A stretch of 64,000 bases of DNA from Bacteroidia bacterium (GTDB lineage Bacteria; Bacteroidota; Bacteroidia; AKYH767-A; OLB10), in contig JAEUTI010000008.1 of NCBI GenBank assembly GCA_016788065.1, positions 62,428 to 126,427 of the forward strand, given 5' to 3'. The position numbers and the translations under genes were made by a program. Of the stretch, positions 10,762 through 64,000 are shown piece by piece (the stretch's first letter is position 1; each line of letters starts with the position of its first letter). The notes beneath the pieces are model-generated. The model saw nothing but the letters and a program-made list of their open reading frames with translations, did no database searches and was not told where the DNA came from.

Positions 10762-10812
10762 AAATATCGGATATTTGATACAAAATTGAATACTTAAACC
10801 GTTATATCCGGA

Positions 10813-11103: not shown

Positions 11104-14100
11104 TCAGGCATACTCACGTAAGTCGACAGGAACAACTTGCGTAACCCCTTGTTCAACCATGGTAATTCCGTACATAATGTCGGTAGCTGCCATGGTTTTT
11201 TTGTTGTGAGTGATGATGATGAATTGAGATTCAGCAGAGAATTTCTTGATGATTTTATTGAATTTATCAATGTTGGAATCATCCAACGGAGCATCAACCT
11301 CATCAAATATACAGAACGGAGAAGGTTTCAAAAGGTAAATACCAAACAGCAATGCGGTTGCAGTTAATGTTTTCTCTCCTCCTGATAACTGATGAATAGA
11401 AAGTGGTTTCTTTCCTTTTGGCTGGGCAATAATCTGAACATCAGATTCCAGAGGATTTGCAAGATCAGTTAGTATAAGATCGCAATTATCTTCTTCTGAG
11501 AATAATGACCGGAATACATGGATGAAGTTTTCGCGGACAGCATGGTAAGCTTCCATGAATTTTTCTTTGGCAGTATTATCAATTTCTGCAATGGTCTTCA
11601 AAAGTGATTCCTTAGCATTTTTTAAATCTTCCTGCTCTTTAACAATAAAATCGTGACGCTCTTTAATTTCTTTAAATGATTCGAGTGCCATCGGATTGAT
11701 AGGCCCGAAGTCAGACAATTGCTTTTTCAGTTTTTCAGATCGTGTTCGAAGTTCTTCTGCATCAAGTTCCGGATTTGGTTCCTGTTCCATGATTTCTTCG
11801 AGTACAATGTTGAATTCGATATTCAGACGCTCTTTCAGGGACGTCATCTTTAAACGAAGCTCATTTATCTGATTGTGGATTTCACGGATGATGCCATCAG
11901 AATGCTCCTTTTGCTTCCGTTTTTCTGCAATCAGTTTTTCTTCCTTATCAATTTCACCTTTCGATTTATAATAATCATCTTCCTGAGTACGAACAATCAC
12001 TTCGGCACTCGATTTTTTCTCGGTGTGTTCCTTGAATAAAGCCTCTGCAGTGTGCTGTTGCTCATGCAGGGATTTTAATTGCTGAGTGATGCCTTCAAGT
12101 TCAATCAGATGTTCTTCCCGGCTGCGTGTCAGATTGCTTACCTGATTGGATTTAAAACTAATGTCCCTGGAAATATTCTGTAATTTATTCTGCTGTTGGA
12201 AAAACTGAATATTTTTCTGGTTGTAAGCGTTTGTCATATCGCTTACATGTTTCTGTAATTCATTTGAAAGATCCTGCTTGATTTTTTGCTGATCTAAAAG
12301 GTTCTGCAATTCCGTTCTTTGTGATTCAATGGAAAACCCTTTGATTGCTTCAGGATGTTCTTCAGGCTTATTCAGATTTTCATTTTCTTCAGTAAGCTGA
12401 TTTACGGTTGTTCGAGTGTAATCTATTGCCTGAACCAGGAATTCCCTGTTATTTTTCAAGGTGTTCACCTGTCCTGTTGTGCGTGCAAAATCACCATCAG
12501 TTTTGCTCACATTTCTACCGGCTTCACTAAAGGTATTTCTTTGTTCCGTTTGTTCTTTCTCAGTAGCAGCAATCTGTTTTTGTAACGAATCAATAACTTC
12601 CTGATGAGCTTTAATTTCATCAGATAGTTTCTGCAGATTTTTCTGCTTACCGGTTCTTTTTCCATCACCTAAACCAATAGATCCTCCTGCAAGCACATAA
12701 CGCTGGCGAAGGAATTTTCCATTCTTGGAAAGTAAAATATAAGAACCTTCTATAGATGAAGTATCAAATTGGCTGATGTCATCACCACCATCATATAAAT
12801 AGACATTCCCCAGTAAATGTTCGAAAAGTTTAGCATAGGCACCATCAAATTCAGTGAGTGACAACGCGCGTTTACATCCGGCAATATCTTTTGCTGATGG
12901 AGTAGGAAGGGACTTCAGATTATCAAGGACAAAAAAGTGAGCACGTCCTTTTGATGAAGTATTCAGCATTTGAAGTGCTTCCCATGCTTCTCTGGTGTTC
13001 TGTACAATAAAATGGTTGAGGAATGGTTCCAGGTAATTTTCGATGGCATTTTTATACTCATCATCACAACTGATCACTTCGGAAACCAAAGGAACTTGTT
13101 TGAACTGAGAGTTTGGAGATTTCAAAAATTTGATGGATTCAGGAAACCCTTCCATTTTTTCCAGCAAATTTTTTGTCAGCTCAAATTCATTTGATTTAAT
13201 ATCAGATTTCCTTTTCTCCTCAGCTAGTTGCTGATTTAATGTGCGAAGCTTGTTTTCGGTCTCACGAAGTTTTTGCTCAAAATCATCACGGTGTTTTTTT
13301 GCTGCCGCAGATTCTTTTTCCAGGCGTTCCCGTTCCGGAACTATTTTAGAAATTTCCTGATCGAGAGTAGCAAGTTTAGTCTCATTAGCCTGGATCTGAT
13401 CATTCAATCTTTTTAATTCTTCACCAATAGAATTGCTTCTTGCCTGACGAACAGCCGCCTGTGTTTCATAGCGATTTATTTGCTGACGTAATTCGTGGAG
13501 TTGCTGATTCAATGATTTCAGTTCTCCAACCGATTCTTCATACAAATGCTTATTGTCTTCAACATTTTGCTTCATTTCTGATAGCTGATGTTCCAGACTT
13601 TTCAGTGCTTCTTCTTCTGTTGTTTTTTCTCCGGTAAGGGATGTTATACTCTCATTTAATTCAGCAATAGTTTGTTCATCAGTTACATTTTGATGACTTA
13701 ATTGCTTTTGTTTATCATGAAGGAAAGAAATTTTTTCTTTCACATTTTTGATCTCATTCTCATTCTTTGTAATAAGAAGTATAATATCATTCAGTTCTTT
13801 TTGTACTGTCGATAAATTCTTCTCTTTTTCCAGACTCTCTGTTTTTAACTTCTGGATATTTGCCTCTATTACATCAAGGTCAACATGATGTTGTAATTTT
13901 TCATCTGAGATTGATTCTTCTCTTTTTTGAAGATCCTGAAGCGACTCTCGAAATTCACGAACAGCATATAAAGAATAAGCCATGCTTACTTCTTTATATT
14001 CATCTTTCATCCGATAAAATTTCTGAGTTTTCTTTGCCTGACTTTCTAGTTGCTTTAAACTTTTTTCTATCTCGAATAACAAATCATTAACCCTGTTAAG

Positions 14101-14661
14101 ATCAGCATCTGTTTCTTCCAGCTTCTGGAAAGTTTGTTTTTTTCTGATTTTATATTTGGAAATTCCGGCTGCTTCTTCCAGCAAAAATTTGATTGTGTTA
14201 TTCCGGTCATTCAGAATCTCATCAATCATTTTTAATTCAATAATTGCGTAACTGTCTGACCCAATTCCGGTATCCAGAAAAAGATCTGTAATGTCTTTTA
14301 ACCTGCAGGTAACATTATTTAATAAATATTCACTTTCTCCGGTACGGTACAATCTTCTGCTGATGCAAACAGTTGAGTATTCAGTTGAAAGTACCCCTTT
14401 ATTGTTCTCAAAAGTTAGGTGTACTTCAGCCAGATTTGCGGGCTTCCGGTTTTTTGTTCCATTGAAAATAATGTTCTCCATTTTTTCGGAGCGCAGCATA
14501 CGGGTTTTTTGTTCTCCCAATACCCAGCGAATGGCATCAACCACATTCGATTTCCCGGAACCATTTGGCCCGACAACTGCCGTTACACCTTTGTCGAAGT
14601 GAATAGTTACTTTATCACCAAAACTTTTAAAGCCTTTTATTTCTAATGTTGTAAGACGCAT
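11104..14661 (-). CDS. smc: Chromosome segregation protein SMC
   Basis: 1185 aa. N-terminal Walker A (GPNGSGKSN), long coiled-coil arms, a hinge, and a C-terminal LSGGEKTLTA signature with a Walker B DE. Confidence 0.95.
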   Translation of the reverse strand: MRLTTLEIKGFKSFGDKVTIHFDKGVTAVVGPNGSGKSNVVDAIRWVLGEQKTRMLRSEKMENIIFNGTKNRKPANLAEVHLTFENNKGVLSTEYSTVCISRRLYRTGESEYLLNNVTCRLKDITDLFLDTGIGSDSYAIIELKMIDEILNDRNNTIKFLLEEAAGISKYKIRKKQTFQKLEETDADLNRVNDLLFEIEKSLKQLESQAKKTQKFYRMKDEYKEVSMAYSLYAVREFRESLQDLQKREESISDEKLQHHVDLDVIEANIQKLKTESLEKEKNLSTVQKELNDIILLITKNENEIKNVKEKISFLHDKQKQLSHQNVTDEQTIAELNESITSLTGEKTTEEEALKSLEHQLSEMKQNVEDNKHLYEESVGELKSLNQQLHELRQQINRYETQAAVRQARSNSIGEELKRLNDQIQANETKLATLDQEISKIVPERERLEKESAAAKKHRDDFEQKLRETENKLRTLNQQLAEEKRKSDIKSNEFELTKNLLEKMEGFPESIKFLKSPNSQFKQVPLVSEVISCDDEYKNAIENYLEPFLNHFIVQNTREAWEALQMLNTSSKGRAHFFVLDNLKSLPTPSAKDIAGCKRALSLTEFDGAYAKLFEHLLGNVYLYDGGDDISQFDTSSIEGSYILLSKNGKFLRQRYVLAGGSIGLGDGKRTGKQKNLQKLSDEIKAHQEVIDSLQKQIAATEKEQTEQRNTFSEAGRNVSKTDGDFARTTGQVNTLKNNREFLVQAIDYTRTTVNQLTEENENLNKPEEHPEAIKGFSIESQRTELQNLLDQQKIKQDLSNELQKHVSDMTNAYNQKNIQFFQQQNKLQNISRDISFKSNQVSNLTRSREEHLIELEGITQQLKSLHEQQHTAEALFKEHTEKKSSAEVIVRTQEDDYYKSKGEIDKEEKLIAEKRKQKEHSDGIIREIHNQINELRLKMTSLKERLNIEFNIVLEEIMEQEPNPELDAEELRTRSEKLKKQLSDFGPINPMALESFKEIKERHDFIVKEQEDLKNAKESLLKTIAEIDNTAKEKFMEAYHAVRENFIHVFRSLFSEEDNCDLILTDLANPLESDVQIIAQPKGKKPLSIHQLSGGEKTLTATALLFGIYLLKPSPFCIFDEVDAPLDDSNIDKFNKIIKKFSAESQFIIITHNKKTMAATDIMYGITMVEQGVTQVVPVDLREYA

Positions 14662-14956
14662 TTCACGATCTGCTAATTAATTGGATTTTTGAAAACAGGA
14701 GTGCAAAAATAGATTTTCCACTTAGTCTGAACCTAACAAAATTAAGATAATTGCCTCGTTTTTCATATCTTTTTAACAAGTTGGCTGATTGTCAGCTATT
14801 TGATTTGTGAACAAACGGAAGCAGGCGAGTGAAAAAGTTCAGAAAGTGAATTAATGCCTGAACTCACGTCAAAATGTCATTAAAAAGCCACAAAATGAAA
14901 TTTATTGTCAAACCAATTAAAAAAAACAGATATTTGTTCACATAAGTTTCGATGGA

Positions 14957-15457
14957 ATGGATGATCTGAAGGTCATATTATATATAGTGGGCGCTATTAT
15001 CTGGGTGGTTTACAATAACTACCGTAAGATAATGGATGAATCCAAGAAACGGAATCCGGCCAAACCGGTGCCTCAGGAAGTACCAGCACCTCCAATTCAG
15101 ATGCCTCCAGTCAGTAAAACACAGCAAACGACTCGACGTCAGACCAATGCATTGCCTAAACCAGCTCGCCAAAGTTCGCCGGTTCCAACCAGAAAGCCTT
15201 TGAGAGAATCTGCAAGGCCTTCGTTGGCTTCGGGACGTAAACCAATGATTGCTCCGAGGTTATCACAACAAAAAAAGAATGAAGTTTCCATGAATTATAA
15301 CCTTGAAGGTGGTGCTATTCAACCTTCTAAAATTGTACAATTTGAAGAAACACTAACAGTCAGTGAATATGGGAATTCTGTTTTAAATGACCTCCGGGAT
15401 GGTGATATGCAAAAAGCAATTATATATTCTGAAATACTCAAAAGACCTTATAACTAG
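14957..15457 (+). CDS. Hypothetical membrane-anchored proline-rich protein
   Basis: N-terminal TM (VILYIVGAIIWVVY), a Pro/Gln/Arg-rich linker and a short conserved-looking C-terminal region. It is divergent from smc. Confidence 0.45.
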   Translation: MDDLKVILYIVGAIIWVVYNNYRKIMDESKKRNPAKPVPQEVPAPPIQMPPVSKTQQTTRRQTNALPKPARQSSPVPTRKPLRESARPSLASGRKPMIAPRLSQQKKNEVSMNYNLEGGAIQPSKIVQFEETLTVSEYGNSVLNDLRDGDMQKAIIYSEILKRPYN

Positions 15458-15585
15458 CCACTTGAATGAACATACCGGTCAATTAATTGTAAAAATTAAA
15501 ATAATGTTTGGATATTATTTTTAAATATTCATACTTTTACGCTCCTCATTATAAATTATTAAAAACCTAACATAAAAATAACCCT

Positions 15586-18500
15586 ATGCTGAGAAAAATT
15601 TACCTATTAACAGCTGCTTTTTTAGTTGCTACCGGCTTTGCGGCTTTTGCCCAAACCGGTTCAATTAAAGGTAAGGTACTTGACAAAACCACCAAGGAAC
15701 CTTTACCCTTCGCGAATGTTGTCGTGGAGATGAATGGCAGTCAGGCGGGCGGTGCGCAGACCGACTTCGATGGTAACTTCACCATCAAACCGCTTCAACC
15801 CGGCAAGTATAACCTGAAAGCCTCTTTCGTTGGTTATACCGCGGCAGAAATCACCGGAGTACTGGTGTCTGCCGACAAAATTACCTTTCAGGACATTTCA
15901 ATGCCTAAAGGTGCAGTCGATATCACTGCTGTAGAGGTTACCTCTTACAAAAACCCGATCATCGACAAGGGTAACCCTTCATCACAAACTACTGTGACCC
16001 AGGAAGAAATTCAGGTTGCACCAACCAGAGATGTGAAGTCAGTTGCTTCTACAACTGCCGGTGTATTCCAGAAAGATGAAGGAGATGATGTTAACGTACG
16101 CGGATCCAGAAGCGATGCTACCGACTACTATGTAGACGGTATCAAAGTTAGAGGTTCCACAGCACTTCCTCAGTCAGGTATCGAGCAAATCACGGTTGTA
16201 ACCGGTGGTGTTCCTGCTCAGTACGGTGATGCTACAGGAGGTATCATTAATATCACTACCAGAGGTCCTTCAAAGGAATTCTTCGGTGGAGTTGAATTTG
16301 TAACATCTGAATTATTCGATAAATATGGCTACAACCTAGCTGGTTTGAATATCTCCGGTCCGGTTTGGTCTAAAAAAGATGCTGAAGGCAAAGTTGACAG
16401 AACTATTGTTGGTTTCTTCCTTTCAGCTGAGTACCAGATTGAAAAGGATCCTGATCCATCAGCAATCGGTATGTACAAAGTGAAAGATGATATTTTTAAT
16501 GATATCAAAAGTAATCCGCTTTCTTCAACCTTAGCAGGTGGAACTGTTTTCCGTAACAAAACAGAGTACCTGAGAGCTGATGCTTTCGAAAAAATTAAAA
16601 TCAAACAAAATACTGGTTCTGCAGGATACCGTGTATCAGGTAAGATTGATATTCAACCGGTTGACAATATTACATTGACATTCGGAGGTTCTTACGATCA
16701 CAGTGATAAAAATGAGTTTATCTACACTTACTCATTATATAACTATGATAATAACAACCAGAAAATTGATGACTCCTGGAGGGTTTTTGGTCGTTTGACT
16801 CAAAAATTAGGTGGATCAAAAAGCAGTACTGAAGGTTCTGCATCTGTAATCAAGAATGCATTCTATTCGATTCAGGTAGATTATAATAAAACTAAAACCA
16901 TTTATCAGGATGAAGATCATGAAGATCGTTATTTCGATTATGGTTATATCGGTAAGTTCAATACTATCAAAAATCAAAACCTGTTCCTGAATCAGGTATT
17001 CTCGATTGATCCTATTACAGGTGATACCATCTTCACTATATTTGATAATAATGGTAACGGTATTTTGTATGAACAAGCAGCCTTACCAGGTGATTCTGTA
17101 ATTCAATATACCGGAGGTGGAGTGAATCCATTAACTCAGGCTTACACTGATCAGTATTTTACTCTTGCAGGCGACGATTACCAACAGTATTATTCAACAC
17201 TTTCTCAGGTTGCAGTAAACGGTGGTATCATCAATGGAGCGTTACCAAGAAATACTTATTCTCTTTACAGAAGTCCTGGTTACACTTACAACCAGTATCG
17301 TGTTGTTGAAGGTTCTCAATTCCGTGTTTCTGCTTCAGTTTCTGCCGACGTGAAAGATCATGCTATCGTAGCAGGATTTGAATATGAGCAACGCTCTGAT
17401 CAGGAATTCGTAATTAATCCTGTTGGTCTTTGGGGACTTGCAAGATTAAGAGCAAATGAAAACAACCAACAGCTTGACAGAAACAGCCCAACTTACATTG
17501 GTAATACTGTTTACTATCCACGTGCTTACAGCAACATCGACGGTCTAAGTGGTTTCTATGAAAACCTTAGAGCAAAATTGAATGCTTCTGGTTACAATCT
17601 CGGAATTTCTGATTTTGTTGATATCGATAATCTTGACAGAAGTTTACTTTCTCTTGATCTGTTCACTGCTGACGAATTATTAAATTCAGGAAATCAATTC
17701 ATCAACTATTATGGATATGATTATAAAGGTGAAAAGCAAAGCGGAACGCCTTCATTTGATGATTTCTGGACTGCAACTGATGCATCAGGAAATTATACAC
17801 GTCCGGTTGCTGCCTTCGAACCTATTTATATGGCAGGTTACATTCAGGATAAGTTCGCAATCAATGACCTTATCTTCAACGTAGGTCTTCGTGTTGACCG
17901 TTTTGACGCAAACCAAAAAGTATTAAAAGACAGATATCTGCTTTATCCTGCATATACTGCGGGACAAAAAGCTCCGAATCGTCCATCTAACATCGGTGAT
18001 GACTTTATTGTTTATGTTGATGATGTTAATGATCCTGAAAATGCAAATATCGTAGGTTACCGTGACGAAGACACCTGGTATGATGCAAGTGGTGTTCAGG
18101 TATCAAATCCTTCTATCCTTGCTCTTCAATCAGGTGGTGAAGTTGCTCCTTGGCTTTTAGATACAGATCTTGCAAACAATGGTGTTCAGTTAACTAAATT
18201 CAAACCATCTGACAGCTTTAAGGATTATGAGCCATCTGTATCTGTGATGCCTCGTATCGCTTTCTCTTTCCCAATTTCTGATGAAGCACTCTTCTTTGCT
18301 CACTATGATGTATTGACTCAGCGTCCTCCATCAAGATCAAGAAGTAACCCAATTGATTACTATTTCATCGAATCTCAAGGTGCATTGTTGAATAACCCAG
18401 CTCTTAAACCAGAGCGTACTACCGATTATGAAATTGGTTTCAAACAAACACTTTCAAAAAGTTCTGCATTCACAATCTCTGCATTCTACCGCGAACTTCG

Positions 18501-19308
18501 TGATATGATCCAGCAGACAGCTGTTAACTTCGCTTATCCTAAAACTTATCTTACATTCGATAACATCGATTTTGGAACTGTTAAAGGTCTGAACTTCGGT
18601 TACGATATGAGAAGAACAGGTAACGTTCGTTTAAGCGCAAATTACTCGCTTCAGTTTGCTGATGGAACCGGTTCTGGTGACAGAACTTCTGATAAACTTC
18701 TTCAGAATGGTTTCCCAAACCTGAGAACAATTGCTCCACTTGATTTCGATCAGCGTCATGCAATTACTGTTTCTGTTGATTACCGTTATGAAAGTGGTAA
18801 AGACTACAACGGTCCAATGATTAAGAATACACAGATTTTTGCTAACACAGGATTGAATGTTGTAATGCGTGCCGGTTCAGGTACTCCATACAGCCGTCAG
18901 CGTGATGTTACTACTCAGGCAAACAATATCGGACTTCAACAAGTTGGATCAGGTCTGCTTGATGGTGAAATCAACGGTTCAAGATTGCCATGGCAATATC
19001 GTATCGATCTGAAAGTAGATCGTGATTTTGAACTTAAATTTGGCAAATCTGAAGGCAGCAAACCTGTTTTCCTGAATGTCTATGTTCAAATTCAAAACTT
19101 ATTTGATACAAGAAACATCGTGAGTATTTACCGCTACACTGGTAATGCTGATGATGATGGTTATCTTGCTTCTGCAGTTGGTCAATCTCAAATCCCATTG
19201 CAAACAGATCCAACCGCATTCGTTGATCAATACAACATTAAAGTGAACGATCCATCAAACTACAGCCTTCCAAGAAGAGCAAGGATCGGTGTTAAACTTG
19301 ATTTTTAA
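15586..19308 (+). CDS. TonB-dependent outer-membrane receptor (CarboxypepD_reg-like N-domain + plug + beta-barrel), unusually long at 1240 aa
   Basis: Signal peptide. It has a CarboxypepD_reg-like domain (GSIKGKVLDKTTKEPLPFANVVV…GNFTIKPLQPGKYNLKASFVGY) and a plug (…DVNVRGSRSDATDYYVDGIKVRG…IEQITVVTGGVPAQYGDATGGIINITTRG). It ends …RIGVKLDF with a C-terminal aromatic residue. Confidence 0.85.
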   Translation: MLRKIYLLTAAFLVATGFAAFAQTGSIKGKVLDKTTKEPLPFANVVVEMNGSQAGGAQTDFDGNFTIKPLQPGKYNLKASFVGYTAAEITGVLVSADKITFQDISMPKGAVDITAVEVTSYKNPIIDKGNPSSQTTVTQEEIQVAPTRDVKSVASTTAGVFQKDEGDDVNVRGSRSDATDYYVDGIKVRGSTALPQSGIEQITVVTGGVPAQYGDATGGIINITTRGPSKEFFGGVEFVTSELFDKYGYNLAGLNISGPVWSKKDAEGKVDRTIVGFFLSAEYQIEKDPDPSAIGMYKVKDDIFNDIKSNPLSSTLAGGTVFRNKTEYLRADAFEKIKIKQNTGSAGYRVSGKIDIQPVDNITLTFGGSYDHSDKNEFIYTYSLYNYDNNNQKIDDSWRVFGRLTQKLGGSKSSTEGSASVIKNAFYSIQVDYNKTKTIYQDEDHEDRYFDYGYIGKFNTIKNQNLFLNQVFSIDPITGDTIFTIFDNNGNGILYEQAALPGDSVIQYTGGGVNPLTQAYTDQYFTLAGDDYQQYYSTLSQVAVNGGIINGALPRNTYSLYRSPGYTYNQYRVVEGSQFRVSASVSADVKDHAIVAGFEYEQRSDQEFVINPVGLWGLARLRANENNQQLDRNSPTYIGNTVYYPRAYSNIDGLSGFYENLRAKLNASGYNLGISDFVDIDNLDRSLLSLDLFTADELLNSGNQFINYYGYDYKGEKQSGTPSFDDFWTATDASGNYTRPVAAFEPIYMAGYIQDKFAINDLIFNVGLRVDRFDANQKVLKDRYLLYPAYTAGQKAPNRPSNIGDDFIVYVDDVNDPENANIVGYRDEDTWYDASGVQVSNPSILALQSGGEVAPWLLDTDLANNGVQLTKFKPSDSFKDYEPSVSVMPRIAFSFPISDEALFFAHYDVLTQRPPSRSRSNPIDYYFIESQGALLNNPALKPERTTDYEIGFKQTLSKSSAFTISAFYRELRDMIQQTAVNFAYPKTYLTFDNIDFGTVKGLNFGYDMRRTGNVRLSANYSLQFADGTGSGDRTSDKLLQNGFPNLRTIAPLDFDQRHAITVSVDYRYESGKDYNGPMIKNTQIFANTGLNVVMRAGSGTPYSRQRDVTTQANNIGLQQVGSGLLDGEINGSRLPWQYRIDLKVDRDFELKFGKSEGSKPVFLNVYVQIQNLFDTRNIVSIYRYTGNADDDGYLASAVGQSQIPLQTDPTAFVDQYNIKVNDPSNYSLPRRARIGVKLDF

Positions 19309-19343
19309 TCATTAATTAAACAAAGAAAAAAAATAACCAAAAT

Positions 19344-22300
19344 ATGATGAAGCGCTCTATAATCACCAACTTTTCTCTGGCCTCTGCTGTAATCCTGGGT
19401 ACTCTCGGATTGCCGGCTACAGCCAAAGAAAACGTGGGCGTTACAGGAAACTCCAATAAGAATAGTGCTATTGCTGCTAACTGTAACCCAACCACTGCAC
19501 AGGCTGATCTCGACATCAATAACGTCCGTACTACTGTCCTCGTAGGAGGAGATATGTGGTGGGATCTTTCGAATGCAAAATATGAAGTTCCTATCGGTAC
19601 TAATAAACATGCCCTGTTCGCAGGTGCATTGTGGATTGGTGGTATCGATGCCGGTGGACAAATTAAAGTTGCCGGTCAAACATATCGCCAGACAGGTATC
19701 GACTTCTGGGGTGGACCTATTGATACTAATGCTGTAAATATTACTCCTGATAAATGTCAGACTTATGACAAGCATTGGAAAGTAACTAAACAAGAAGTCC
19801 TTGATTTCATTGGTGACCCTAATGCGGCAACAAATGACATTAAGAGCTGGCCGGGTAATGGCGATCCTACTTCTAACGAGGGTACTTATCTTGCACCATT
19901 CGTAGATGTTAACGGTGACCTTGAATATGATTACCGTGATGGTGATTATCCCGGATATAATTTCGGTGGCGATTATCCATCAGTTCCTGGTACCATTAAA
20001 ACTGTTTGTAACGATTATATTTTCGGTGACAAAACACTTTGGTGGGTATTCAACGACGTAGGTAACGCTCACACTGAAACAAGTTCAGATCCTATCGGTC
20101 TTGAAATCCGTGCTCAGGCATTTGGTTTCAAAACTAATGATGAGATCAACAACATGACTTTCTACAAATATCAGATCATCAATCGTTCAACTCTTACCCT
20201 TACACAGACTTATTTCGGTCAATGGGTAGATCCGGATTTGGGAAATGCTGTAGATGATTATGTTGGTTGCGATGTTCCACGCGGTTTAGGTTTCTGCTAC
20301 AATGGTGATGCCGATGATGAAACTGCTTCAGGTTATGGTTTAAATCCTCCTGCTATCGGAGTTGACTTCTTCCAGGGACCTTTGGCTGATGTAAACGACT
20401 TAGTTGATAACGATCGTGATGGTTGTATTGACTGTACATTCATTGATTCAGCTGGAGTCACTCTTACTTATGACGACAATATCCTTGGTGAGCAAATCAT
20501 CATGTCTAAATTCGTTTACTATAATAACGTAAATAACTCACCAATCGGAAATCCTAACGGCTTTACTGATTTCTACAACTACCTACGCGGTATCTGGTTA
20601 GATAACCAACCAATTACTTATGGTGGCGACGGAAGAAATGCCGGAGCTCCTGTATGTAACTTCATGTTCCCGGGAACTACTGACCCTGATAACTTCCCTA
20701 CTTTGGGAGAGTGGTCTGAATTTACTGCAGGTAACCCACCTGAAGATCGTCGATTCCTTCAATCAGCCGGAACATTTACACTTACTCCTGGTGCTGTTAA
20801 CTATATCACAACCGGTGTTGTTTGGGCTCGTGCTCAACAAGGTGGTCCACAAGCTTCTGTTGATCTGATGAAACTTGCAGATGACAAAGCACAGGCATTG
20901 TTTGATAATTGCTTCAAACTTATCGATGGTCCGAATGCACCTGATATGGCTATCCGTGAATTAGACAAACGTCTTATCATTTCTTTAACTAATTATGATA
21001 CTACAGCAGTTGAGTTGTATGATCAGATTGACCCTACAATTGTTGGTGTTCCTGAAGACAGTGCACGTTTCAAATTCCAGGGATATCAGATATTCCAGTT
21101 GAAAGATGCTTCTGCAACTACTGCTGACTTTGGAAATCCTGACCGTATCCGTTTGGCACAACAAGTTGATATCAAAGATGGTGTTGCTCAAATCGTTAAC
21201 TTTAGTTTTGATCCAGCACTGAATGCGAACATTCCGATGGAAATGGTAAATGGTTCTGACAAAGGAATCAATCACACATTTGTTATCACTCAGGATTTAT
21301 TTGCTACAGGAAATACAGCTCTGATCAATCACAAGACCTATTACTTTACTGTTGTTTCTTATGCTTACAACCAGTACAAGAAATATGATCCGAATGATCC
21401 TGCTGCCCTTGATGGTCAGAAAAAACCATACCTGGCTGGTCGTAACAACATCAAAACCTATAGTGCAATTCCACATATCCCAACTCCGGAGAACAGTGGA
21501 CAGATTCTTGGGTCTGACTATGGTGATGGTCCTAGAATTAAACGTATCGAAGGACAAGGTAACGGTGGTATGATTCTCGACTTTGCAAATAATTACGAAA
21601 ATGATATCTTGAATGCTCCTTATCGCGTTCGTGAACCTGAGTATTTTGGTGGAAATGGTCCACTTCCTGTTAAAGTTTATGATCCTGTTTTAATTGAGAA
21701 CTTCAACTATGAAACTCGTTTCAACGGAGTAACTGATACAGATACCTGGAAGATGACTAATCTTTCAACCAACACTACTGTTGATTCTGAAAGAAGTCTT
21801 GGACAAAACAATGAGCAGGTATTCCCTGAGTGGGGACTAAGTGCTAATATCAAGAATATACTTGAGGCTGGAAAACCCGGTGCTGAGAACAATGGTTTAC
21901 TCGAATCAACTGTTGAATTCTCTGATGAAGATTTGAAATGGTTAGCTCCTTTAACTGATGCTGAAGATGCTTCTGCAGAAGACTGGATCCTTTCAGGTGC
22001 AGGTGGAACTTATGGCGGTCTTGATGACGGTCAGGTTTACGAAACAATGGTAAACGGTACCTGGGCGCCATACAAATTGACTTCTAAAACTTATCCGGGA
22101 CCAAAATGGTCAGGAATTGCGGAAGCTCAGATTTCACTTTCTCCGGGAGGTAACTCTAAGACTGCAATTGCAAGTGTTGATATCATCATCACTTCTGACA
22201 AAAGCAAATGGACTAGATCACCAGTTTTTGAAATTGGTGGAGGTACTACCGGTGCAGGAACTGTTGGTTCAGCAAAAGCATTCGACTTACGTAAATCACC

Positions 22301-23453
22301 TTCAATCGATAAAAATGGAAATCCTGATGGTACCGGTGATGGTATGAGCTGGTTCCCTGGTTATGCTGTGAATCTTGAGACTGGTGAGCGTTTAAATATT
22401 GCCTTCGGTGAAAATTCTATTTTAGGTGGTGAAAATGGTGCCGACATGAAATGGAATCCAACTGCGACACAATTTGATAACTCAATCAGTCCACCTGAGC
22501 CAGTATTTGGTGGTATGCATTACATCTATGTGTTTGGACACAATGGCGATGCTACCTTCAACGTAACAGTTAACGGAACGCCTACTGCATTCCTTGCTGA
22601 TGTTGCTCATTATGATGAAGGAAAATCAATCAAAGATCTTGCACAGCTTGGTGCAGGTGAATACCCAGGTGTTCCTTCTGCTAATACTACTGCAAAAAGA
22701 AATCTTTGGAAGGATGCGATGTATGTAAGTATTCCAATGCTTTCGGAAGACTTCTCTAGTCTTAACCTTCCTGATGGAATTCCTGCTGATGTGAAAGTTA
22801 GATTACGCGTTGCAAGAAGCTACAGAACTTATGCTACTTCTGATGTGTTGAAAAGTAATCAGTCATTGACTAGTGGTTCAACTTACTATATTGCTTCTGC
22901 TCCTGTGACTTATGACGGAACAACATACACTGAAGTAGGTGCGTCATTTGTTGCTGGTACAGTTACTGTATTTACAGGCGGTGGAACAGTTACTACTTCT
23001 GCTCCTGCAAACGGTTTTGATCCGCTGTATACTTTCGGTACTGCTGACCTTGCTAACACAACCAACAATGCAAGCGCTGCAACTACGGCTCTCGATCTGA
23101 TCAACGTTGTTCCTAATCCATACTATGCATTCTCCGGATACGAAGTATCGCAGTTGGACAACAGAATCAAAATCACGAATCTGCCTCCGGTATGTACTAT
23201 TTCAATCTTTACCAAGAATGGTACATTAATCAGGAAATTCAGCAGAGACGTTGCTAAAGACAACTCAGAAGGTATCGTGTATGATCCTGCTGTTCCTAAT
23301 ACAGAAACTTCAATTGATTGGGATCTGAAAAACCAAAAAGGTGTTCCTGTTGCTTCCGGTATGTATCTGATACACATTGAAGCTCCCGGCCTAGGTGAGA
23401 AAACACTTAAATGGTTCGGTATGATCAGGCCAATTGACCTTGATACATTCTAA
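19344..23453 (+). CDS. Large secreted beta-rich protein with a type-B (SprB-type) T9SS C-terminal sorting-domain-like terminus
   Basis: Signal peptide MMKRSIITNFSLASAVILGTLGLPATA. It is 1369 aa and rich in G, D, N and T, with a DNDRDG Ca-binding-like motif. The last ~110 aa (VPNPYYAFSGYEV…CTISIFTKNGTLIRKF…IDWDLKNQKGVPVASGMYLIHIEA…KTLKWFGMIRP) follow the type-B CTD pattern (PNAFTPNGDG…IFNRWG…WDG…G.Y.Y…G.V.LIR). It starts 35 bp after the TonB-dependent receptor gene. Confidence 0.6.
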   Translation: MMKRSIITNFSLASAVILGTLGLPATAKENVGVTGNSNKNSAIAANCNPTTAQADLDINNVRTTVLVGGDMWWDLSNAKYEVPIGTNKHALFAGALWIGGIDAGGQIKVAGQTYRQTGIDFWGGPIDTNAVNITPDKCQTYDKHWKVTKQEVLDFIGDPNAATNDIKSWPGNGDPTSNEGTYLAPFVDVNGDLEYDYRDGDYPGYNFGGDYPSVPGTIKTVCNDYIFGDKTLWWVFNDVGNAHTETSSDPIGLEIRAQAFGFKTNDEINNMTFYKYQIINRSTLTLTQTYFGQWVDPDLGNAVDDYVGCDVPRGLGFCYNGDADDETASGYGLNPPAIGVDFFQGPLADVNDLVDNDRDGCIDCTFIDSAGVTLTYDDNILGEQIIMSKFVYYNNVNNSPIGNPNGFTDFYNYLRGIWLDNQPITYGGDGRNAGAPVCNFMFPGTTDPDNFPTLGEWSEFTAGNPPEDRRFLQSAGTFTLTPGAVNYITTGVVWARAQQGGPQASVDLMKLADDKAQALFDNCFKLIDGPNAPDMAIRELDKRLIISLTNYDTTAVELYDQIDPTIVGVPEDSARFKFQGYQIFQLKDASATTADFGNPDRIRLAQQVDIKDGVAQIVNFSFDPALNANIPMEMVNGSDKGINHTFVITQDLFATGNTALINHKTYYFTVVSYAYNQYKKYDPNDPAALDGQKKPYLAGRNNIKTYSAIPHIPTPENSGQILGSDYGDGPRIKRIEGQGNGGMILDFANNYENDILNAPYRVREPEYFGGNGPLPVKVYDPVLIENFNYETRFNGVTDTDTWKMTNLSTNTTVDSERSLGQNNEQVFPEWGLSANIKNILEAGKPGAENNGLLESTVEFSDEDLKWLAPLTDAEDASAEDWILSGAGGTYGGLDDGQVYETMVNGTWAPYKLTSKTYPGPKWSGIAEAQISLSPGGNSKTAIASVDIIITSDKSKWTRSPVFEIGGGTTGAGTVGSAKAFDLRKSPSIDKNGNPDGTGDGMSWFPGYAVNLETGERLNIAFGENSILGGENGADMKWNPTATQFDNSISPPEPVFGGMHYIYVFGHNGDATFNVTVNGTPTAFLADVAHYDEGKSIKDLAQLGAGEYPGVPSANTTAKRNLWKDAMYVSIPMLSEDFSSLNLPDGIPADVKVRLRVARSYRTYATSDVLKSNQSLTSGSTYYIASAPVTYDGTTYTEVGASFVAGTVTVFTGGGTVTTSAPANGFDPLYTFGTADLANTTNNASAATTALDLINVVPNPYYAFSGYEVSQLDNRIKITNLPPVCTISIFTKNGTLIRKFSRDVAKDNSEGIVYDPAVPNTETSIDWDLKNQKGVPVASGMYLIHIEAPGLGEKTLKWFGMIRPIDLDTF

Positions 23454-23496: not shown

Positions 23497-24564
23497 ATGA
23501 AGCAATATATAAAACCTATATTAACCAGTTTACTCACTGCATCCCTGCTCGCTGTAGTAGTACCTGCTCAGGCAGGTAACGAAGACCGTGCCGGTCAGGC
23601 AGGTGCATCTGAGTTGCTGATAAACCCCTGGACTAAAAGTGCCGGATGGGGTGGATTGAACATTGCAAATGTCAGAGGCATGGAAGCACAGTTCAATAAC
23701 GTTGCAGGTCTTGCATTTACTAAGAAAACGGAAATTGCGTTCTCTTATACTAACTGGCTTAAAGGAGCCGATATCCAGATTAACTCTTTCGGTTTTTCTC
23801 AAAAAGTGGGAGAAACAGGAGTGCTTGCACTGGGTGTTATGTCGATGAATTTTGGCGATATTCAGGTAACTACTGTTGATCAGCCGGAAGGTGGAATCGG
23901 TACGTATACCCCGCAATTCATCAACCTGGGTCTTTCTTATGCAAAAGCATTCTCCAACAGTATTTATGGAGGTATGACTGTAAGAGTGATTTCTCAATCA
24001 ATATCTGATGTTAAAGCTCAGGGTGTTGCGTTTGATGCCGGTATCCAATATGTAACCGGAACAAATGAAGCAAAAGACAATTTGAAATTTGGTATCTCTC
24101 TGAAGAATGTTGGAACTCCAATGCGTTTCTCAGGTGATGGTCTCTCTTTCAGAGGAAATCCTCCTGTAGAAGCTACTTATCAGTTAACAATTCAGTCTCG
24201 TGCCGAGAAGTTTGAATTACCTTCTTTGGTAAATATTGGTGCATCTTATGATTATAAAATCATGGAAAATCACCGCTTGACTGGAGTTGCGGCCTTTACA
24301 TCAAACTCGTTTACTAACGATCAGTTCGGTCTTGGAATTGAATATGCTTTCAAAGAAATGTTCTCTCTTCGCGGAGGATATGTATTTGAAAAAGATATGA
24401 CAAGTGACGAAGATCGCGCAACTGCTATGTCAGGTTTGAATGCAGGTGTTTCAGTTGATGTGCCCCTGGGTAAAAGTGGAAAGAAATTCGGTATTGATTA
24501 TTCTTACAAATCAACCGAATTCTTCGACGGATGCCACAGCATAGGTGCCAGAATCATCCTCTGA
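23497..24564 (+). CDS. T9SS-associated FadL-like outer-membrane beta-barrel (PorP/SprF-family or PorV-like)
   Basis: Signal peptide …VVPAQA. It is 355 aa with alternating beta-strand composition. The N-terminal …ELLINPWTKSAGWGG…AGLAF block resembles the PorP/SprF / PorV family N-terminus. It sits directly downstream of a type-B-CTD cargo gene, where sprF-like genes usually lie. Confidence 0.5.
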   Translation: MKQYIKPILTSLLTASLLAVVVPAQAGNEDRAGQAGASELLINPWTKSAGWGGLNIANVRGMEAQFNNVAGLAFTKKTEIAFSYTNWLKGADIQINSFGFSQKVGETGVLALGVMSMNFGDIQVTTVDQPEGGIGTYTPQFINLGLSYAKAFSNSIYGGMTVRVISQSISDVKAQGVAFDAGIQYVTGTNEAKDNLKFGISLKNVGTPMRFSGDGLSFRGNPPVEATYQLTIQSRAEKFELPSLVNIGASYDYKIMENHRLTGVAAFTSNSFTNDQFGLGIEYAFKEMFSLRGGYVFEKDMTSDEDRATAMSGLNAGVSVDVPLGKSGKKFGIDYSYKSTEFFDGCHSIGARIIL

Positions 24565-30557: not shown

Positions 30558-30639
30558 GCGCATGTGGCGTAATTGGTAGCCGCGCCAGACTTAGGATCTG
30601 GTGCTTCACGGCGTGGGGGTTCGAGTCCCTCCATGCGCA
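30558..30639 (+). tRNA. tRNA-Leu (anticodon TAG)
   Basis: The 7-bp acceptor stem GCGCATG pairs with CATGCGC. The anticodon arm is CCAGA-CTTAGGA-TCTGG, giving anticodon UAG. It has a long class-II variable arm and a T-loop TTCGAGT. The discriminator is A and no CCA is encoded. Confidence 0.85.
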
Positions 30640-59530: not shown

Positions 59531-60613
59531 CTATGATTGCTGTTTGATGGGTTTCTTTTTTGCTTTTAACTTATCCTCTTCTCCTATGAGAAACCCAAAA
59601 GGACGTAATTGTTCAACGTTATCAAATATAACTTTTAGCATTCCAAGATATGGAATAAATAGCATCATACCGGCAACACCCCATAACATTCCTCCAAAGA
59701 GTAAAGCCAGCATGGTGGCAAGCGGGTTTATAGAAACTGCTGATCCTACAACTTTGGGCGTTATAAAATTGTTATCCAGAAACTGAACGAAAACGCATAC
59801 TCCAATGGCTCCAATTGCTACCCAGACCGAGTCTTTTGTCAGGAGTGCGATTATGACCGGAAAAATACTTCCTATTAAAACTCCGATGTACGGAATGATA
59901 TTTAACAAACCGGCAATCACGCCAAGCAAAATGGCATGTTTAATTCCAAGAATTAAGAATCCAATACTGTTCAGAACGGCCAATATGGAAATATCAATTA
60001 ATAGCCCAACTAAATATTTTTGTGATACCTGTGATGTTCTGTGCATCACATTTAATAACCATTCATGTTTATCCGGAGTGGTCATGTATTTCATGAAATC
60101 AATAAACTTGTGCCGGTAAAAAGTAAAGAAGAAGATGTAAATAGGAATAAGTGTTGCAGCTGCCAGAAAACTGCCCGTTGCAGAAAAAACATTGCCAAAG
60201 ATCTGTCCCCCGGATTGCATAACTCCAATCATTTGCTCTTCCAGCCAATCAATTTGACGCTGCTCACTTACATTAAAATTCTCTGCAATCATGTGCTGCA
60301 ACTCGGTGAATTTTTCCGTCAGCTTCTGGTTGAGAAGAGGAAGATCTTCTGAAAAAGACATGATTTGCGAACTAAGAAAGAATATTAATCCACCTAAAAC
60401 TATTATCATCAGTAAAATACTCATGATAATTGCTAATGTTGTGGGTATTTTTTTCGATTCCAGCCACCGGCTTACAGGCATCAGCAGAAAAGTTAATAAG
60501 ATCCCTAAACTGACAGGAATTAATATGCCACTCCCTGCCACCAAAATAAAAATAATCATGATAAAAAGCAGTACATACCCTGTGCCTTTAATGTATATTG
60601 GATAGTCTTTCAT
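59531..60613 (-). CDS. AI-2E family transporter (PerM/TqsA-like, UPF0118)
   Basis: About 8 TM segments with a C-terminal …LLFGGMLWGVAGMMLFIPYLGMLKVIFDNVEQLRPFGFLIGEE typical of the family. I prefer the internal start MKDYPIYIKGTG (about 60613), because the track start adds a non-membrane leader. Confidence 0.75.
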   Translation of the reverse strand: MKDYPIYIKGTGYVLLFIMIIFILVAGSGILIPVSLGILLTFLLMPVSRWLESKKIPTTLAIIMSILLMIIVLGGLIFFLSSQIMSFSEDLPLLNQKLTEKFTELQHMIAENFNVSEQRQIDWLEEQMIGVMQSGGQIFGNVFSATGSFLAAATLIPIYIFFFTFYRHKFIDFMKYMTTPDKHEWLLNVMHRTSQVSQKYLVGLLIDISILAVLNSIGFLILGIKHAILLGVIAGLLNIIPYIGVLIGSIFPVIIALLTKDSVWVAIGAIGVCVFVQFLDNNFITPKVVGSAVSINPLATMLALLFGGMLWGVAGMMLFIPYLGMLKVIFDNVEQLRPFGFLIGEEDKLKAKKKPIKQQS

Positions 60614-60939
60614 GGCCTGAGTTTGGAACGCCAAATGTAAGAAAAAGGCACATAAGGTTGTAAATAATTGAAAATTAATTAAATAGACATTTTGTGGTAT
60701 TTGACAAACAGTTGCTTTTTTTGGGTGAATGGCATCGGTTTTCAATGCAGTTCTTTTAATTTTGTAAATAATTAACAATCAATAAATACCCTGATTATCA
60801 GACATCAGATTTTCACCTCTGGAAAACGACTTAAAATCCGGTTCCAAAAGTGAAACCCTTATGTGCTTTTTTCGTTAATGTGAATAAGGTGAAATACGTC
60901 GTTTCATCAACCTTTAACCCATTTGATTACCATTGATAA

Positions 60940-63900
60940 ATGATTAAGCTTACCGCAACACAGTTGGAATTACTGGAAAAGTACAACCAAACGGATGTTG
61001 GTTTGCCTATGGATAAATGTCTGGTTCAGCTATTTGAAGAACAACTTGCGTTAACGCCACAATCAATTGCTGTGATCCATCAGGAACAGCAATTGACTTA
61101 TGAAGAGTTGAATGCCAGATCCAATCAGATTGCCAATTGGCTCATTGCTAATGGTGCCAAATCCAATCAATTGATAGGCCTTTGTGCGGAACGTTCAATT
61201 GATTTAGTAGCTGGTGTGTTAGGCATTTTAAAAGCAGGTGGAGCTTATGTTCCTTTTGATCCAACTTATCCTTCCGACAGGATTGCTTACATGATTTCAG
61301 AATCAGGTATTAATCTGGTTCTTTCTCAAAAGCAATTTGCAGATGTTTTCTCTGGTGTGAAAGCAACTGTTAAATTTCTGGATACAGAATGGAGTGATTT
61401 TGCAACATCAGGTAAAACCAATCCAAATATTAAAAATACTCCCGAAGACCTGGCATATGTGCTTTTTACTTCTGGTTCAACCGGGATGCCTAAAGGAGTA
61501 GGAATGGTTCATAAGGCTCTCATGAATCTTATTGCGTGGCAGAAAACAATTCCACATCTCGATAAACCCGCAAGAACACTTCAGTTTTCGCCAATCAGTT
61601 TTGATGTCTCCTTTCAGGAACTGTTTACTACCTGGACCACCGGTGGTACTTTAGTCCTCATTAATGATGAGATGAGACTGAATGCTATCAAGTTACTGGA
61701 ATTTATTCAGGAACACAAAATCGAAAGATTATTTCTGCCATTCATAGCTTTACAACATCTGGCCGAAGTGGCAGTTAACAGCAATATTTATCCCGCTTCA
61801 CTTACTGATGTTATTACTGCAGGTGAACAATTACAAATTACACGTGCTGTAAATTCTTTTTTCACCAAATTACCCGGTTGCCGTTTGCACAATCATTATG
61901 GGCCTACCGAAACTCATGTGGTGACTGCTTACACATTGAATGGAACACCTGATTCATGGCCAGCATTGCCGCCAATCGGAGCTCCCATTGCAAATACAAA
62001 AATTTATATTCTGGATGAAAAACTGATGCCAGTAGCTATTGGTGAACAAGGTGAACTGTATGTATCAGGATTTGCTCTTGCCAGCGGTTATATTAACAGA
62101 CCGGAACTTACTGCAGAAAGATTCTTATCAAGTCCGTTTGAAAATTCAGGTTTTTCCAGAATTTATAAAACAGGTGATTTAGGTAGATACTTGCCTGATG
62201 GCGCCATTGAATATCTGGGACGTGCAGACAACCAGGTTAAAGTCCGAGGTTACCGAATTGAATTAGGGGAAGTTGAAATTGCGATTTCTAAAAATACTGC
62301 CGTTGCTCAGGTAGCCGTAACAGTGCGAGAAGATGAACCTGGCGATAAACGACTGGTTGCATATATTGTTCCTTCGGAAAATTCGAGACTAACGGTAGCG
62401 GATATACGAAAAACTATTTCAGGAAATTTGCCTGAATACATGATGCCTTCTTCATTTGTTTTTCTAAATACTTTACCAAAAACCCCAAGTGGAAAAATTG
62501 ATCGTAAATCACTGCCAAAACCTGACGAGAAAAGACCGGAAATAGGCACGTTGTTTGTCCAGGCTTCGACGCCCGATGAAATTGCGATTTCCCGTTTATG
62601 GTCTAAATTATTGCGTATCGATAAAGTTGGAATTGATGATAATTTCTTCGATTTAGGTGGAAATTCATTGCTTGCACTTCAGTCAATAGCAATTCTCCGG
62701 CAGGAAAATGGAATGGATATTCCTGTTGTAAAATTATACCAGCAACCAACTATCAGAGGCTTGTTGAAAGCCCTGGCTGGAACAACAAATCAGCAATCGG
62801 TTTTCGATAAAGCTAAAGAACGATTTTCCAAAGATGAAAACACCAATGCATCCTCCGGAAAAACAGTTGAAGATGGCATTGCAATTATAGGTATGTCGGG
62901 TCGTTTTCCCGGAGCCGATACAGTAGATCAAATGTGGCAGAATCTTCTTGATGGAAAAGAAACTACATCATTTTTTAAAGATGATGAGATCGATCCTTTC
63001 ATCGATGCTTCCGTTAAAAATGACCCATACTATGTCAAAGCCAGAGGTGTTATCAGCAATGCCGATAAATTTGATGCCGGCTTTTTTGCAGTCAACCCAC
63101 GTTTGGCTGAATTAATGGACCCACAACAAAGAGTTTTTCTGGAAGTTTGTTGGGAAGCCCTTGAAAATTCAGGTTATACAGCTGCCTCTTACCCGGGCTT
63201 GATCGGCGTTTATGCCGGAATGGGAAATAATACATACTATACCAATAATGTTATTCATCATAAAGAAGCTATCGAAAGAGTTGGCTCTTTTCAGGTGATG
63301 GTGGCAAACGAAAAAGATTATATCGCTACCAGAATAAGTCACGTAATGAACTTAACTGGTCCCGGACTAAGCATCCATACTGCATGTTCTACTTCTCTGA
63401 CTGCTGTTGCAACTGCATGCCAGTCGTTGTGGAATAAGCAATGTGACATGGCCATTGCCGGTGGAATAGCAATTACCAGTCCGGTGAATAGCGGTCATAT
63501 TTATCAGGAAGGTGGAATGTTTTCTGAAGATGGTCACACCCGTTCCTTCGATGCAGGTGCCCGTGGCACTGTATTCAGTGATGGATCGGGAGTGGTGATA
63601 TTAAAAAGATATAAAGAGGCACTTGCTGATGGAGATACTATTTATGCGGTTATCAGAGGTGTCGGAGTCAATAATGATGGTTCTGAAAAAGCTAGTTTTA
63701 CTGCGCCATCTGTAGAGGGTCAGGCCAATGTTATTGCTATGGCTCAAGCGAGTGCAAATGTGTCTCCGGAATCTATTTCATATATTGAAACACACGGAAC
63801 AGCAACTCCTTTAGGAGATCCTATTGAAGTGGAAGCTTTAACTTTGGCATTTAGAGGTGGCACCGACAAAAAACAGTTTTGTGCAATTGGTTCTGTGAAA

Positions 63901-64000
63901 TCAAATTTCGGACATCTTACTGCAGCTGCCGGTGTTACGGGATTAATTAAAACAGCCCTTGCCCTTAAACATAAAATTATACCCGCTTCAATTCATTATA
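60940..64000 (+). CDS. Hybrid non-ribosomal peptide synthetase / polyketide synthase (A-T-KS…), 5' part, continuing beyond the window end
   Basis: Start MIKLTATQLELLEKYNQ at 60940, and the frame stays open to 64000. A-domain motifs: LTYEELNARS, LKAGGAYVPFDPTYPSDR, YVLFTSGSTGMPKGV, FDVSFQE, NHYGPTETHV, GELYVSGFALASGYINRPELTAERF, YKTGDLGRY…RADNQVKVRGYRIELGEVE, and LPKTPSGKIDRKSL. The PCP carries DNFFDLGGNSLLALQ. KS motifs: IAIIGMSGRFPGA, DPQQR, GPGLSIHTACSTSL, ETHGTATPLGDP, and GSVKSNFGHLTAAAG. It is absent from the ORF track because it is open-ended. Confidence 0.9.
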   Translation, partial: MIKLTATQLELLEKYNQTDVGLPMDKCLVQLFEEQLALTPQSIAVIHQEQQLTYEELNARSNQIANWLIANGAKSNQLIGLCAERSIDLVAGVLGILKAGGAYVPFDPTYPSDRIAYMISESGINLVLSQKQFADVFSGVKATVKFLDTEWSDFATSGKTNPNIKNTPEDLAYVLFTSGSTGMPKGVGMVHKALMNLIAWQKTIPHLDKPARTLQFSPISFDVSFQELFTTWTTGGTLVLINDEMRLNAIKLLEFIQEHKIERLFLPFIALQHLAEVAVNSNIYPASLTDVITAGEQLQITRAVNSFFTKLPGCRLHNHYGPTETHVVTAYTLNGTPDSWPALPPIGAPIANTKIYILDEKLMPVAIGEQGELYVSGFALASGYINRPELTAERFLSSPFENSGFSRIYKTGDLGRYLPDGAIEYLGRADNQVKVRGYRIELGEVEIAISKNTAVAQVAVTVREDEPGDKRLVAYIVPSENSRLTVADIRKTISGNLPEYMMPSSFVFLNTLPKTPSGKIDRKSLPKPDEKRPEIGTLFVQASTPDEIAISRLWSKLLRIDKVGIDDNFFDLGGNSLLALQSIAILRQENGMDIPVVKLYQQPTIRGLLKALAGTTNQQSVFDKAKERFSKDENTNASSGKTVEDGIAIIGMSGRFPGADTVDQMWQNLLDGKETTSFFKDDEIDPFIDASVKNDPYYVKARGVISNADKFDAGFFAVNPRLAELMDPQQRVFLEVCWEALENSGYTAASYPGLIGVYAGMGNNTYYTNNVIHHKEAIERVGSFQVMVANEKDYIATRISHVMNLTGPGLSIHTACSTSLTAVATACQSLWNKQCDMAIAGGIAITSPVNSGHIYQEGGMFSEDGHTRSFDAGARGTVFSDGSGVVILKRYKEALADGDTIYAVIRGVGVNNDGSEKASFTAPSVEGQANVIAMAQASANVSPESISYIETHGTATPLGDPIEVEALTLAFRGGTDKKQFCAIGSVKSNFGHLTAAAGVTGLIKTALALKHKIIPASIHY

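Follow-up and report, generated by a model that had tools for sequence, protein, structure and literature searches.

The last three kilobases of a 64,000-nucleotide stretch of an uncultured Bacteroidota genome hold the beginning of a hybrid nonribosomal peptide synthetase-polyketide synthase (NRPS-PKS) gene, which we call gene 1. The stretch, referred to throughout as the window, comprises positions 62,428 to 126,427 of contig JAEUTI010000008.1 (GenBank assembly GCA_016788065.1, Bacteroidia bacterium). Translation of the window gave 1020 codons without a stop from the ATG at 60940 to base 64000, and adenylation (A), peptidyl carrier (PCP), and ketosynthase (KS) domains were found fused on this single polypeptide, with the A domain beginning at residue 32. 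The features of gene 1 within the window are as follows.

60940..64000, plus strand: gene 1, hybrid NRPS-PKS, its 5' 3061 bases, frame open at the window end
61033..62505, plus strand: adenylation domain (residues 32-522), from Pfam, TIGR01733, and motifs A1-A10
61093 (A1), 61228 (A2), 61450 (A3), 61600-61611 (A4, FDVS), 61891 (A5, NHYGPTE), plus strand: adenylation motifs, from the pattern search
62050 (A6), 62164 (A7), 62218 (A8), 62428 (A9), 62488-62505 (A10, SGKIDR), plus strand: adenylation motifs, from the pattern search
62587..62775, plus strand: peptidyl carrier domain (residues 550-612), PF00550, E 5e-13
62875..63999, plus strand: ketosynthase domain, complete (residues 646-1020), PF00109 and PF02801

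The A domain was recognized in Pfam by AMP-binding at residues 32-384 (E 4e-75) and AMP-binding_C at 444-519, and by the NCBIfam amino-acid adenylation model TIGR01733 at 427.2 bits, against a cutoff of 317.4. All 10 of its core motifs were found by the pattern search. The carrier domain scored 49.5 bits with PF00550 (cutoff 20.8) and carries the motif DNFFDLGGNS at 62638-62667, in which the serine of LGGNS, Ser576 (62665-62667), is the phosphopantetheine site; this motif and its serine are unchanged across the relatives described below. For the KS, ketoacyl-synt matched residues 646-894 (E 1.5e-70) and Ketoacyl-synt_C residues 902-1020, covering profile positions 1-118 of 119. The catalytic Cys-His-His triad is complete, with Cys816 in HTACSTS (63385-63387), His952 in ETHGTAT (63793-63795), and His992 (63913-63915) in KSNFGH (63898-63915), and it is invariant in 36 homologues; such a triad marks a condensing KS as opposed to KS0 or KSQ. 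A sequence-only reading of this DNA, made from the letters and the open reading frames (ORFs), had already described motifs A1-A10, the carrier GGNS site, the KS cysteine, and the first histidine in one open frame, and all of these were located by Pfam and by pattern search. It had placed the second histidine motif probably just past base 64000, which proved incorrect, as His992 lies within the window and the KS is essentially complete.

Directly 5' of the ATG at 60940 there are two stops in the same frame, and the nearest upstream gene (59531-60778) lies on the minus strand, so there is no room for a condensation (C) domain upstream of gene 1. No Condensation match was found by Pfam in the 1020-codon translation either. 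Gene 1 is thus supported as a type I hybrid NRPS-PKS that starts with a loading module, as had been proposed. The best single-domain matches of its KS among solved structures, at 345-433 bits, were 8xjy, 4wky, 4oqj, and ClbC, which come from hybrid or trans-acyltransferase lines, while the KS domains of DEBS scored lower, at about 220-245 bits. We discounted 7zma, nominally the top match, because its score adds up the contributions of two KS domains on a single chain. This pattern of similarity would fit a KS that takes an aminoacyl unit from a PCP.

The substrate of the A domain was approached through its specificity code, which was read by alignment to a reference segment of GrsA; a control with the same procedure returned the canonical code DAWTIAAICK. 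Positions 235-322 (GrsA numbering) were taken from the alignment, and positions 330 and 331 by fixed offset from motif A5. The residues obtained were D222, V223, Q226, F265, I292, A294, H319, V327, V328, and K519, giving DVQFIAHVVK. An arbitrary gap placed by the aligner after GPTE yields an alternative code ending in HVTK, which is also of the proline type. A code read wholly by fixed offset, DVQFELHVVK, was rejected because the A domain of gene 1 has an insertion between positions 301 and 322. D222, within FDVS, and K519, within SGKIDR, align with D235 and K517 of GrsA. In A domains these two residues bind the alpha-amino group and the carboxylate of the substrate, and the presence of both equivalents therefore indicates an alpha-amino acid substrate, in line with what had been deduced from the aspartate of FDVS.

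The extracted code is of the proline type. DVQFIAHVxK and DVQYIAHVTK are tabulated as proline codes (PMC2866473, Table 2), and the code of gene 1 equals the first of these at nine of nine specified positions. Valine at position 236 and glutamine at 239 are described as the hallmark of proline-activating A domains (PMC12283262). Within the lineage the code is unchanged, with the sole exception of Val331, which is isoleucine in one relative (L005, below). Among wider A-PCP-KS homologues, some with a following acyltransferase (AT) domain and drawn from many phyla, 32 of 36 carry a DVQ-type code, in a sample that is biased because it was retrieved with a proline-type query. The A domain of gene 1 thus probably activates proline, and the product probably starts with it.

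Everything past base 64000 was read from relatives at the equivalent chromosomal position, with 64-95% protein identity. Exact-protein searches with two neighbouring genes of the window gave no match, nor did exact 70-mer and 31-mer scans of a metagenome collection, and the best matches in the genome collection were at most 95% identical. In seven Bacteroidota loci (64-95% identical), gene 1 lies directly downstream of the same run of genes as in the window, namely GtrA, an epimerase, an Mqn-family gene, and an AI-2E transporter, and it is this shared run that makes the inference across the window end a strong one. Uninterrupted copies of gene 1, 2253-2273 amino acids (aa) long, were found in four relatives (L002, L004, L005, and L006). 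In the closest of these, L002 (95%; CAUJFJ010000070.1, bases 2935-25994), an ORF of 2272 aa is followed by one of 1358 aa and one of 255 aa, and then by minus-strand DsbD_2 and FixH genes. L005 (72%) and L006 (64%) have three ORFs of matching sizes in an unchanged order; in L004 (73%) the contig ends after an uninterrupted 2273-aa gene 1. Pfam gave the domain order in L002 as A-PCP-KS-AT-ACP-Aminotran_3 for gene 1, where ACP is an acyl carrier protein domain and Aminotran_3 an aminotransferase. Gene 2 was read as C-A-PCP-TE, ending in a thioesterase (TE) domain, and gene 3 as an Sfp-type phosphopantetheinyl transferase (PPTase). As inferred from the relatives, the cluster would thus consist of three genes in about 11 kb and end with the PPTase gene. 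The earlier proposal that the window catches the 5' boundary of a cluster extending downstream is borne out in these syntenic relatives, in which it is small and of the cis-AT type. The gene that follows gene 1 beyond the window end lies in three of them as follows.

L002 16838-20914; L005 16813-20838; L006 13930-17964: gene 2 of the relatives

In the relatives an integrated AT follows the KS (PF00698 in L002), and its motifs GHSIGE, of the GHSxG form, and HAFH are kept in L002, L004, L005, and L006. We take HAFH in these AT domains to mark malonyl-CoA specificity. The ACP serine, the lysine of YGKVVGGG that would bind pyridoxal phosphate, the C-domain motif HHIVCDG, and the TE motif GLCFSG are all conserved in the relatives. 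The aminotransferase domain occupies residues 1822-2179 of L002 gene 1, and its best solved match, over the whole length, was the aminotransferase domain of MycA (6kfm/6kfu, E 3e-115), compared with only about 1e-51 for glutamate-1-semialdehyde aminomutases. The TE motif lies at about 20285-20305 of L002 (gene 2 residues 1150-1156) and is also present in L001, L005, L006, and L007. At the nucleophile position it has cysteine rather than serine, and it aligns with GWCFGG of AB3403 and GYSLGG of EntF.

The second A domain, in gene 2, differs between lineages. In L001, L002, and L007, all at least 80% identical, its code is DLTKIGEVGK, of the asparagine type, while L006 has DFWNIGMVHK, of the threonine type, and L005 has DLFNICLVYK. 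DLTKIGEVGK has been discussed in the literature among codes for asparagine and 3-cyano-alanine. With the gene 1 code and the C and TE motifs nearly constant, it looks as though the second building block has been naturally exchanged between lineages.

Two more distant homologues depart from this layout. In L011 (Bacteroidia MAG JBDTRM010000260.1, a metagenome-assembled genome, 10001-16832), a 58%-identical homologue with the code DVQFIGHVVK ends after the AT, at 1523 aa. A glycosyltransferase and a TylF-like methyltransferase come next, and neither an ACP nor an aminotransferase or C domain is seen nearby; this locus may put the same loading unit to another purpose, or it may be a remnant. In L013 (metagenome contig_104406, 10001-19749), A-PCP-KS-AT, possibly with an ACP, is followed by a separate class-III aminotransferase of 575 aa and then by C and A fragments, next to genes for asparagine synthase, an ornithine/diaminopimelate decarboxylase, and a free-standing carrier protein. 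As this split version is from another lineage, the design is not confined to Bacteroidota.

To judge whether gene 1 is a working gene or an orphan, degenerate fragment that is truncated or frameshifted soon after 64000 and makes nothing, we considered both its selection and the truncated records among its relatives. At 985 aa, P0001 from the MAG L001, the closest protein in the database with 93% identity, falls short even of the frame that the window leaves open, and in L001 genes are split all along the locus. Genes 1 and 2 are split in L001, L003, and L007, all of them long-read MAG contigs (JADJBQ010000001.1, JADJOZ010000001.1, and JADKJB010000034.1). The part of gene 1 past 64000 is taken from relatives, which also leaves some room for decay. 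In a four-way DNA alignment, however, the break in P0001 was found to be a one-base deletion in a run of T that is lacking in the window, in L002, and in L003. A break of the kind that had been named as telling against a functional cluster, a stop or frameshift shortly after 64000, thus occurs among the relatives only in L001. The same MAG also splits housekeeping neighbours, the patatin and AI-2E transporter genes, which points to assembly error. We therefore rejected the truncation suggested by P0001 as a homopolymer deletion in an error-prone MAG, and the 985-aa P0001 and the similar records from L001, L003, and L007 are judged to be artefactually truncated.

The substitution pattern agrees with a functional gene. 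The ratio of nonsynonymous to synonymous substitution rates (dN/dS) between the window part of gene 1 and L002 was 0.079 overall; the A domain gave 0.09, the PCP with linker 0.08, and the KS 0.028. The catalytic residues are all conserved in the relatives. A dN/dS of about 0.08 together with intact catalytic residues indicates that gene 1 is under purifying selection and is not decaying. Given also the uninterrupted gene of 2253-2273 aa in four relatives, we regard a degenerate fragment as very improbable.

Taken together, we consider it likely that the window gene encodes a proline-primed A-PCP-KS start and that the cluster continues as in its relatives, with the mechanism described here. Its first two steps rest on domains in the window, the later three on the relatives, and the mode of release is speculation. 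L-proline would be adenylated to prolyl-AMP and loaded on Ser576 of the PCP. The prolyl group would pass to Cys816 of the KS and undergo decarboxylative condensation with malonyl-ACP, giving 3-oxo-3-(pyrrolidin-2-yl)propanoyl-S-ACP. The aminotransferase domain would then turn the beta-keto group into a beta-amino group, as in iturin and mycosubtilin assembly. The C domain would couple this beta-amino acyl unit to the amino acid on the second PCP, which has an asparagine-type code in relatives of at least 80% identity. Finally, the TE, through its cysteine nucleophile, would free a small proline-derived beta-amino pseudo-dipeptide, either linear or cyclised through a free amine. Release might occur by hydrolysis, or by formation of a seven-membered lactam through the beta-amine or an eight-membered one through the pyrrolidine nitrogen.

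Several points weigh against this reading. Specificity codes are predictions, and methylproline, pipecolate, or similar imino acids are also loaded by domains with proline-type codes; DLTKIGEVGK has likewise been reported for 3-cyano-alanine. The downstream part rests on relatives that are at most 95% identical and not on the window genome's own sequence, and the malonyl-specific reading of HAFH is presumptive. Finally, the true intermediate may be a different one, since the free pyrrolidine nitrogen stands gamma to the thioester and could bring about early cyclisation. On the first of these points, the architecture could hold while the starter is some other imino or cyclic amino acid close to proline, for instance 4-methylproline, pipecolate, or azetidine-2-carboxylate. 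DVQ-type codes are common to domains for proline derivatives, and DVQCLSEVTK is given for azetidine carboxylate (PMC12283262). Gene 1, however, agrees with the tabulated proline code at every specified position, and the three-gene cluster of the relatives holds no gene for making a modified proline, so we give such a starter a small but appreciable chance.

Two further alternatives keep proline as the substrate and change its fate. Pyrrole polyketides usually begin with proline on a carrier protein that feeds a PKS, and the prolyl-S-PCP could be oxidised to pyrrole-2-carboxyl-S-PCP in the style of pyoluteorin, prodigiosin, or leupyrrin, with the KS extending the pyrrole. This requires a dedicated flavin-dependent dehydrogenase for the prolyl carrier protein, and such a gene is absent both between the AI-2E transporter and the DsbD_2/FixH genes in L002 and among the called genes of L001. 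Moreover, pyrrole pathways use free-standing A and carrier proteins, whereas here both are fused to the KS; we hold this route to be extremely improbable. The beta-keto or beta-amino intermediate might also cyclise through the pyrrolidine nitrogen to a 1-amino- or 1-oxo-pyrrolizidin-3-one, so that the product would be a bicyclic alkaloid, by analogy with the pipecolate-primed assembly of swainsonine, instead of a pseudo-dipeptide. A secondary amine gamma to a thioester favours a five-membered lactam on chemical grounds, and the fungal synthetase SwnK, with an A-PCP-KS-AT start on pipecolate, builds an indolizidine. But a C-A-PCP-TE module with intact HHxxxDG is conserved directly downstream in every relative, and early departure of the chain from the ACP would deprive this module of its donor, which makes a pyrrolizidinone unlikely. 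Of these readings, we prefer the proline-primed assembly line that transaminates its beta-keto intermediate and hands it to gene 2.

Upstream of gene 1, the window was found to hold an ordinary stretch of chromosome. The start of gene 1 is separated from its divergent neighbour by the following feature.

60779..60939, no strand assigned: divergent intergenic region, 161 bp, between the AI-2E transporter gene (minus strand) and gene 1

This region aligns well among the relatives of 93-95% identity, and the promoter of gene 1 is presumed to lie within it, although sigma-70-type sites were no more frequent there than in shuffled sequence. No riboswitch or other RNA element was found near gene 1 in an Rfam scan of the whole 64-kb window. 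The sole Rfam match above its gathering score in the window was one tRNA gene, at 30558-30639.

The flanking genes, which the sequence-only reading had set apart from the cluster, were confirmed as members of the AI-2E transporter, VitK2_biosynth (MqnA/MqnD), NAD-dependent epimerase/dehydratase, and GtrA families. Further upstream are genes for a patatin-like lipase, a MerR regulator, an M23 peptidase, an alanyl-tRNA synthetase, and a sigma-54 response regulator, and farther off those for SMC, a TonB-dependent receptor, type IX secretion cargo proteins, UvrD, and trigger factor. By their predicted products, these upstream genes are housekeeping genes of an ordinary Bacteroidota chromosome, and none looks biosynthetic. 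In GC content gene 1 (0.39-0.42) is close to its neighbours (0.34-0.41), and base composition showed nothing to suggest recent transfer. Pfam gave no match at E <= 1e-5 for three ORFs in the window, at 19344-23453, 23497-24564, and 5119-6696 (1369, 355, and 525 aa); of these, the first two follow directly after the TonB-dependent receptor gene at 15586-19308, on the same strand.

A small secondary-metabolite cluster of an uncultured Bacteroidota genome thus has its 5' boundary at gene 1. The cluster is an orphan of a well-understood class, with canonical domains and pairwise combinations that have precedent; it leaves the understanding of NRPS-PKS enzymes unchanged, and its value is as a genome-mining lead. 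With three genes in about 11 kb, its size puts direct synthesis and heterologous expression within reach. The predicted product is an unreported proline-derived beta-amino pseudo-dipeptide, whose second residue apparently varies among the relatives, and the conserved cysteine thioesterase could be a tractable second example beside AB3403, which is uncharacterised. More tentatively, and with doubt prevailing, these loci could represent a family, widespread and so far undescribed, of minimal synthetases that are primed by proline, resemble the iturin type, and make a new small scaffold with release by an uncommon cysteine TE. The scaffold of such a family may pair a 3-amino-3-(pyrrolidin-2-yl)propanoyl unit with a single amino acid that varies between lineages (asparagine, threonine, or other), released possibly as a seven- or eight-membered lactam. 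In this Bacteroidota lineage, the fixed chromosomal position among housekeeping genes would fit a signalling or metal-binding role better than a sporadically acquired antibiotic.

We compared the cluster with known systems. No NCBIfam equivalog scored above its cutoff for any of the three cluster proteins. Literature searches for the domain string, or for an aminotransferase-containing NRPS-PKS from Bacteroidetes, returned only McyE and one irrelevant paper, and the whole combination was not found described in the literature searched. Start modules of the same kind, with A-PCP fused to KS-AT and no upstream C domain, occur in SwnK (pipecolate, swainsonine), CyrB (guanidinoacetate, cylindrospermopsin), and McyG. 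To our knowledge, these process the beta-keto group with ketoreductase, dehydratase, or methyltransferase domains and release their products in other ways, and none has an aminotransferase followed by C-A-PCP-TE. McyE of microcystin (KS-AT-ACP-...-AMT-C-A-PCP-C, with AMT the aminotransferase) and PuwE of puwainaphycin resemble the cluster as read from its relatives, since in them an aminotransferase is embedded in a cis-AT PKS module and an NRPS module comes directly after it. They act in mid-line on long polyketide or fatty chains, unlike the arrangement here, which comes right after proline loading and has two modules in total.

Gene 2 of the relatives resembles AB3403 of Acinetobacter baumannii (ABBFA_003403, PDB 4zxh/4zxi), which is a stand-alone termination module, also C-A-PCP-TE, and matched at residues 87-1312 with E 7e-139, although LgrA and other solved NRPS proteins outscore it overall. 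The two share the uncommon cysteine nucleophile in the TE, GWCFGG in AB3403 and GLCFSG in gene 2. AB3403 sits in a different cluster and is itself uncharacterised, so it offers no functional information. It is the only solved NRPS thioesterase with a cysteine nucleophile besides those forming beta-lactams and beta-lactones, and thioesterases of the SulM type are recognized by a Gln-Cys-Asn motif together with a 2,3-diaminopropionate code in the last A domain (PMC11298585). With the SulM and ObiF thioesterases, gene 2 shares the cysteine but neither of these two features: its TE has Leu-Cys-Phe in place of Gln-Cys-Asn, and its A domain has an asparagine-type code.

A close parallel in logic is MycA of mycosubtilin and iturin assembly in Bacillus subtilis, with the layout acyl ligase-ACP-KS-aminotransferase-C-A(Asn)-PCP. 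MycA takes a fatty acid through activation, elongation, and amination at the beta carbon and then attaches asparagine (PMC4219810). The cluster shares with it a primer that a KS extends a single time, a class-III aminotransferase built into the synthetase, and a C-A pair that adds an asparagine-type residue (PMC4219810). It differs in that its primer is an amino acid brought in by an NRPS A domain and not a fatty acid brought in by an acyl-AMP ligase; no fatty-acyl-AMP ligase starter was found in gene 1, whose starter is an amino-acid A domain with a proline code. It differs further in that, in the relatives, its AT is integrated, its modules are split over two genes, and it ends after a single amino acid without building a lipoheptapeptide. 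By its domain content, the cluster is thus predicted to work like MycA but is not an iturin-family lipopeptide synthetase. Each of its elements has precedent, from the amino-acid-primed starts through the aminotransferase modules of MycA and McyE to a C-A-PCP-TE module with a cysteine thioesterase.

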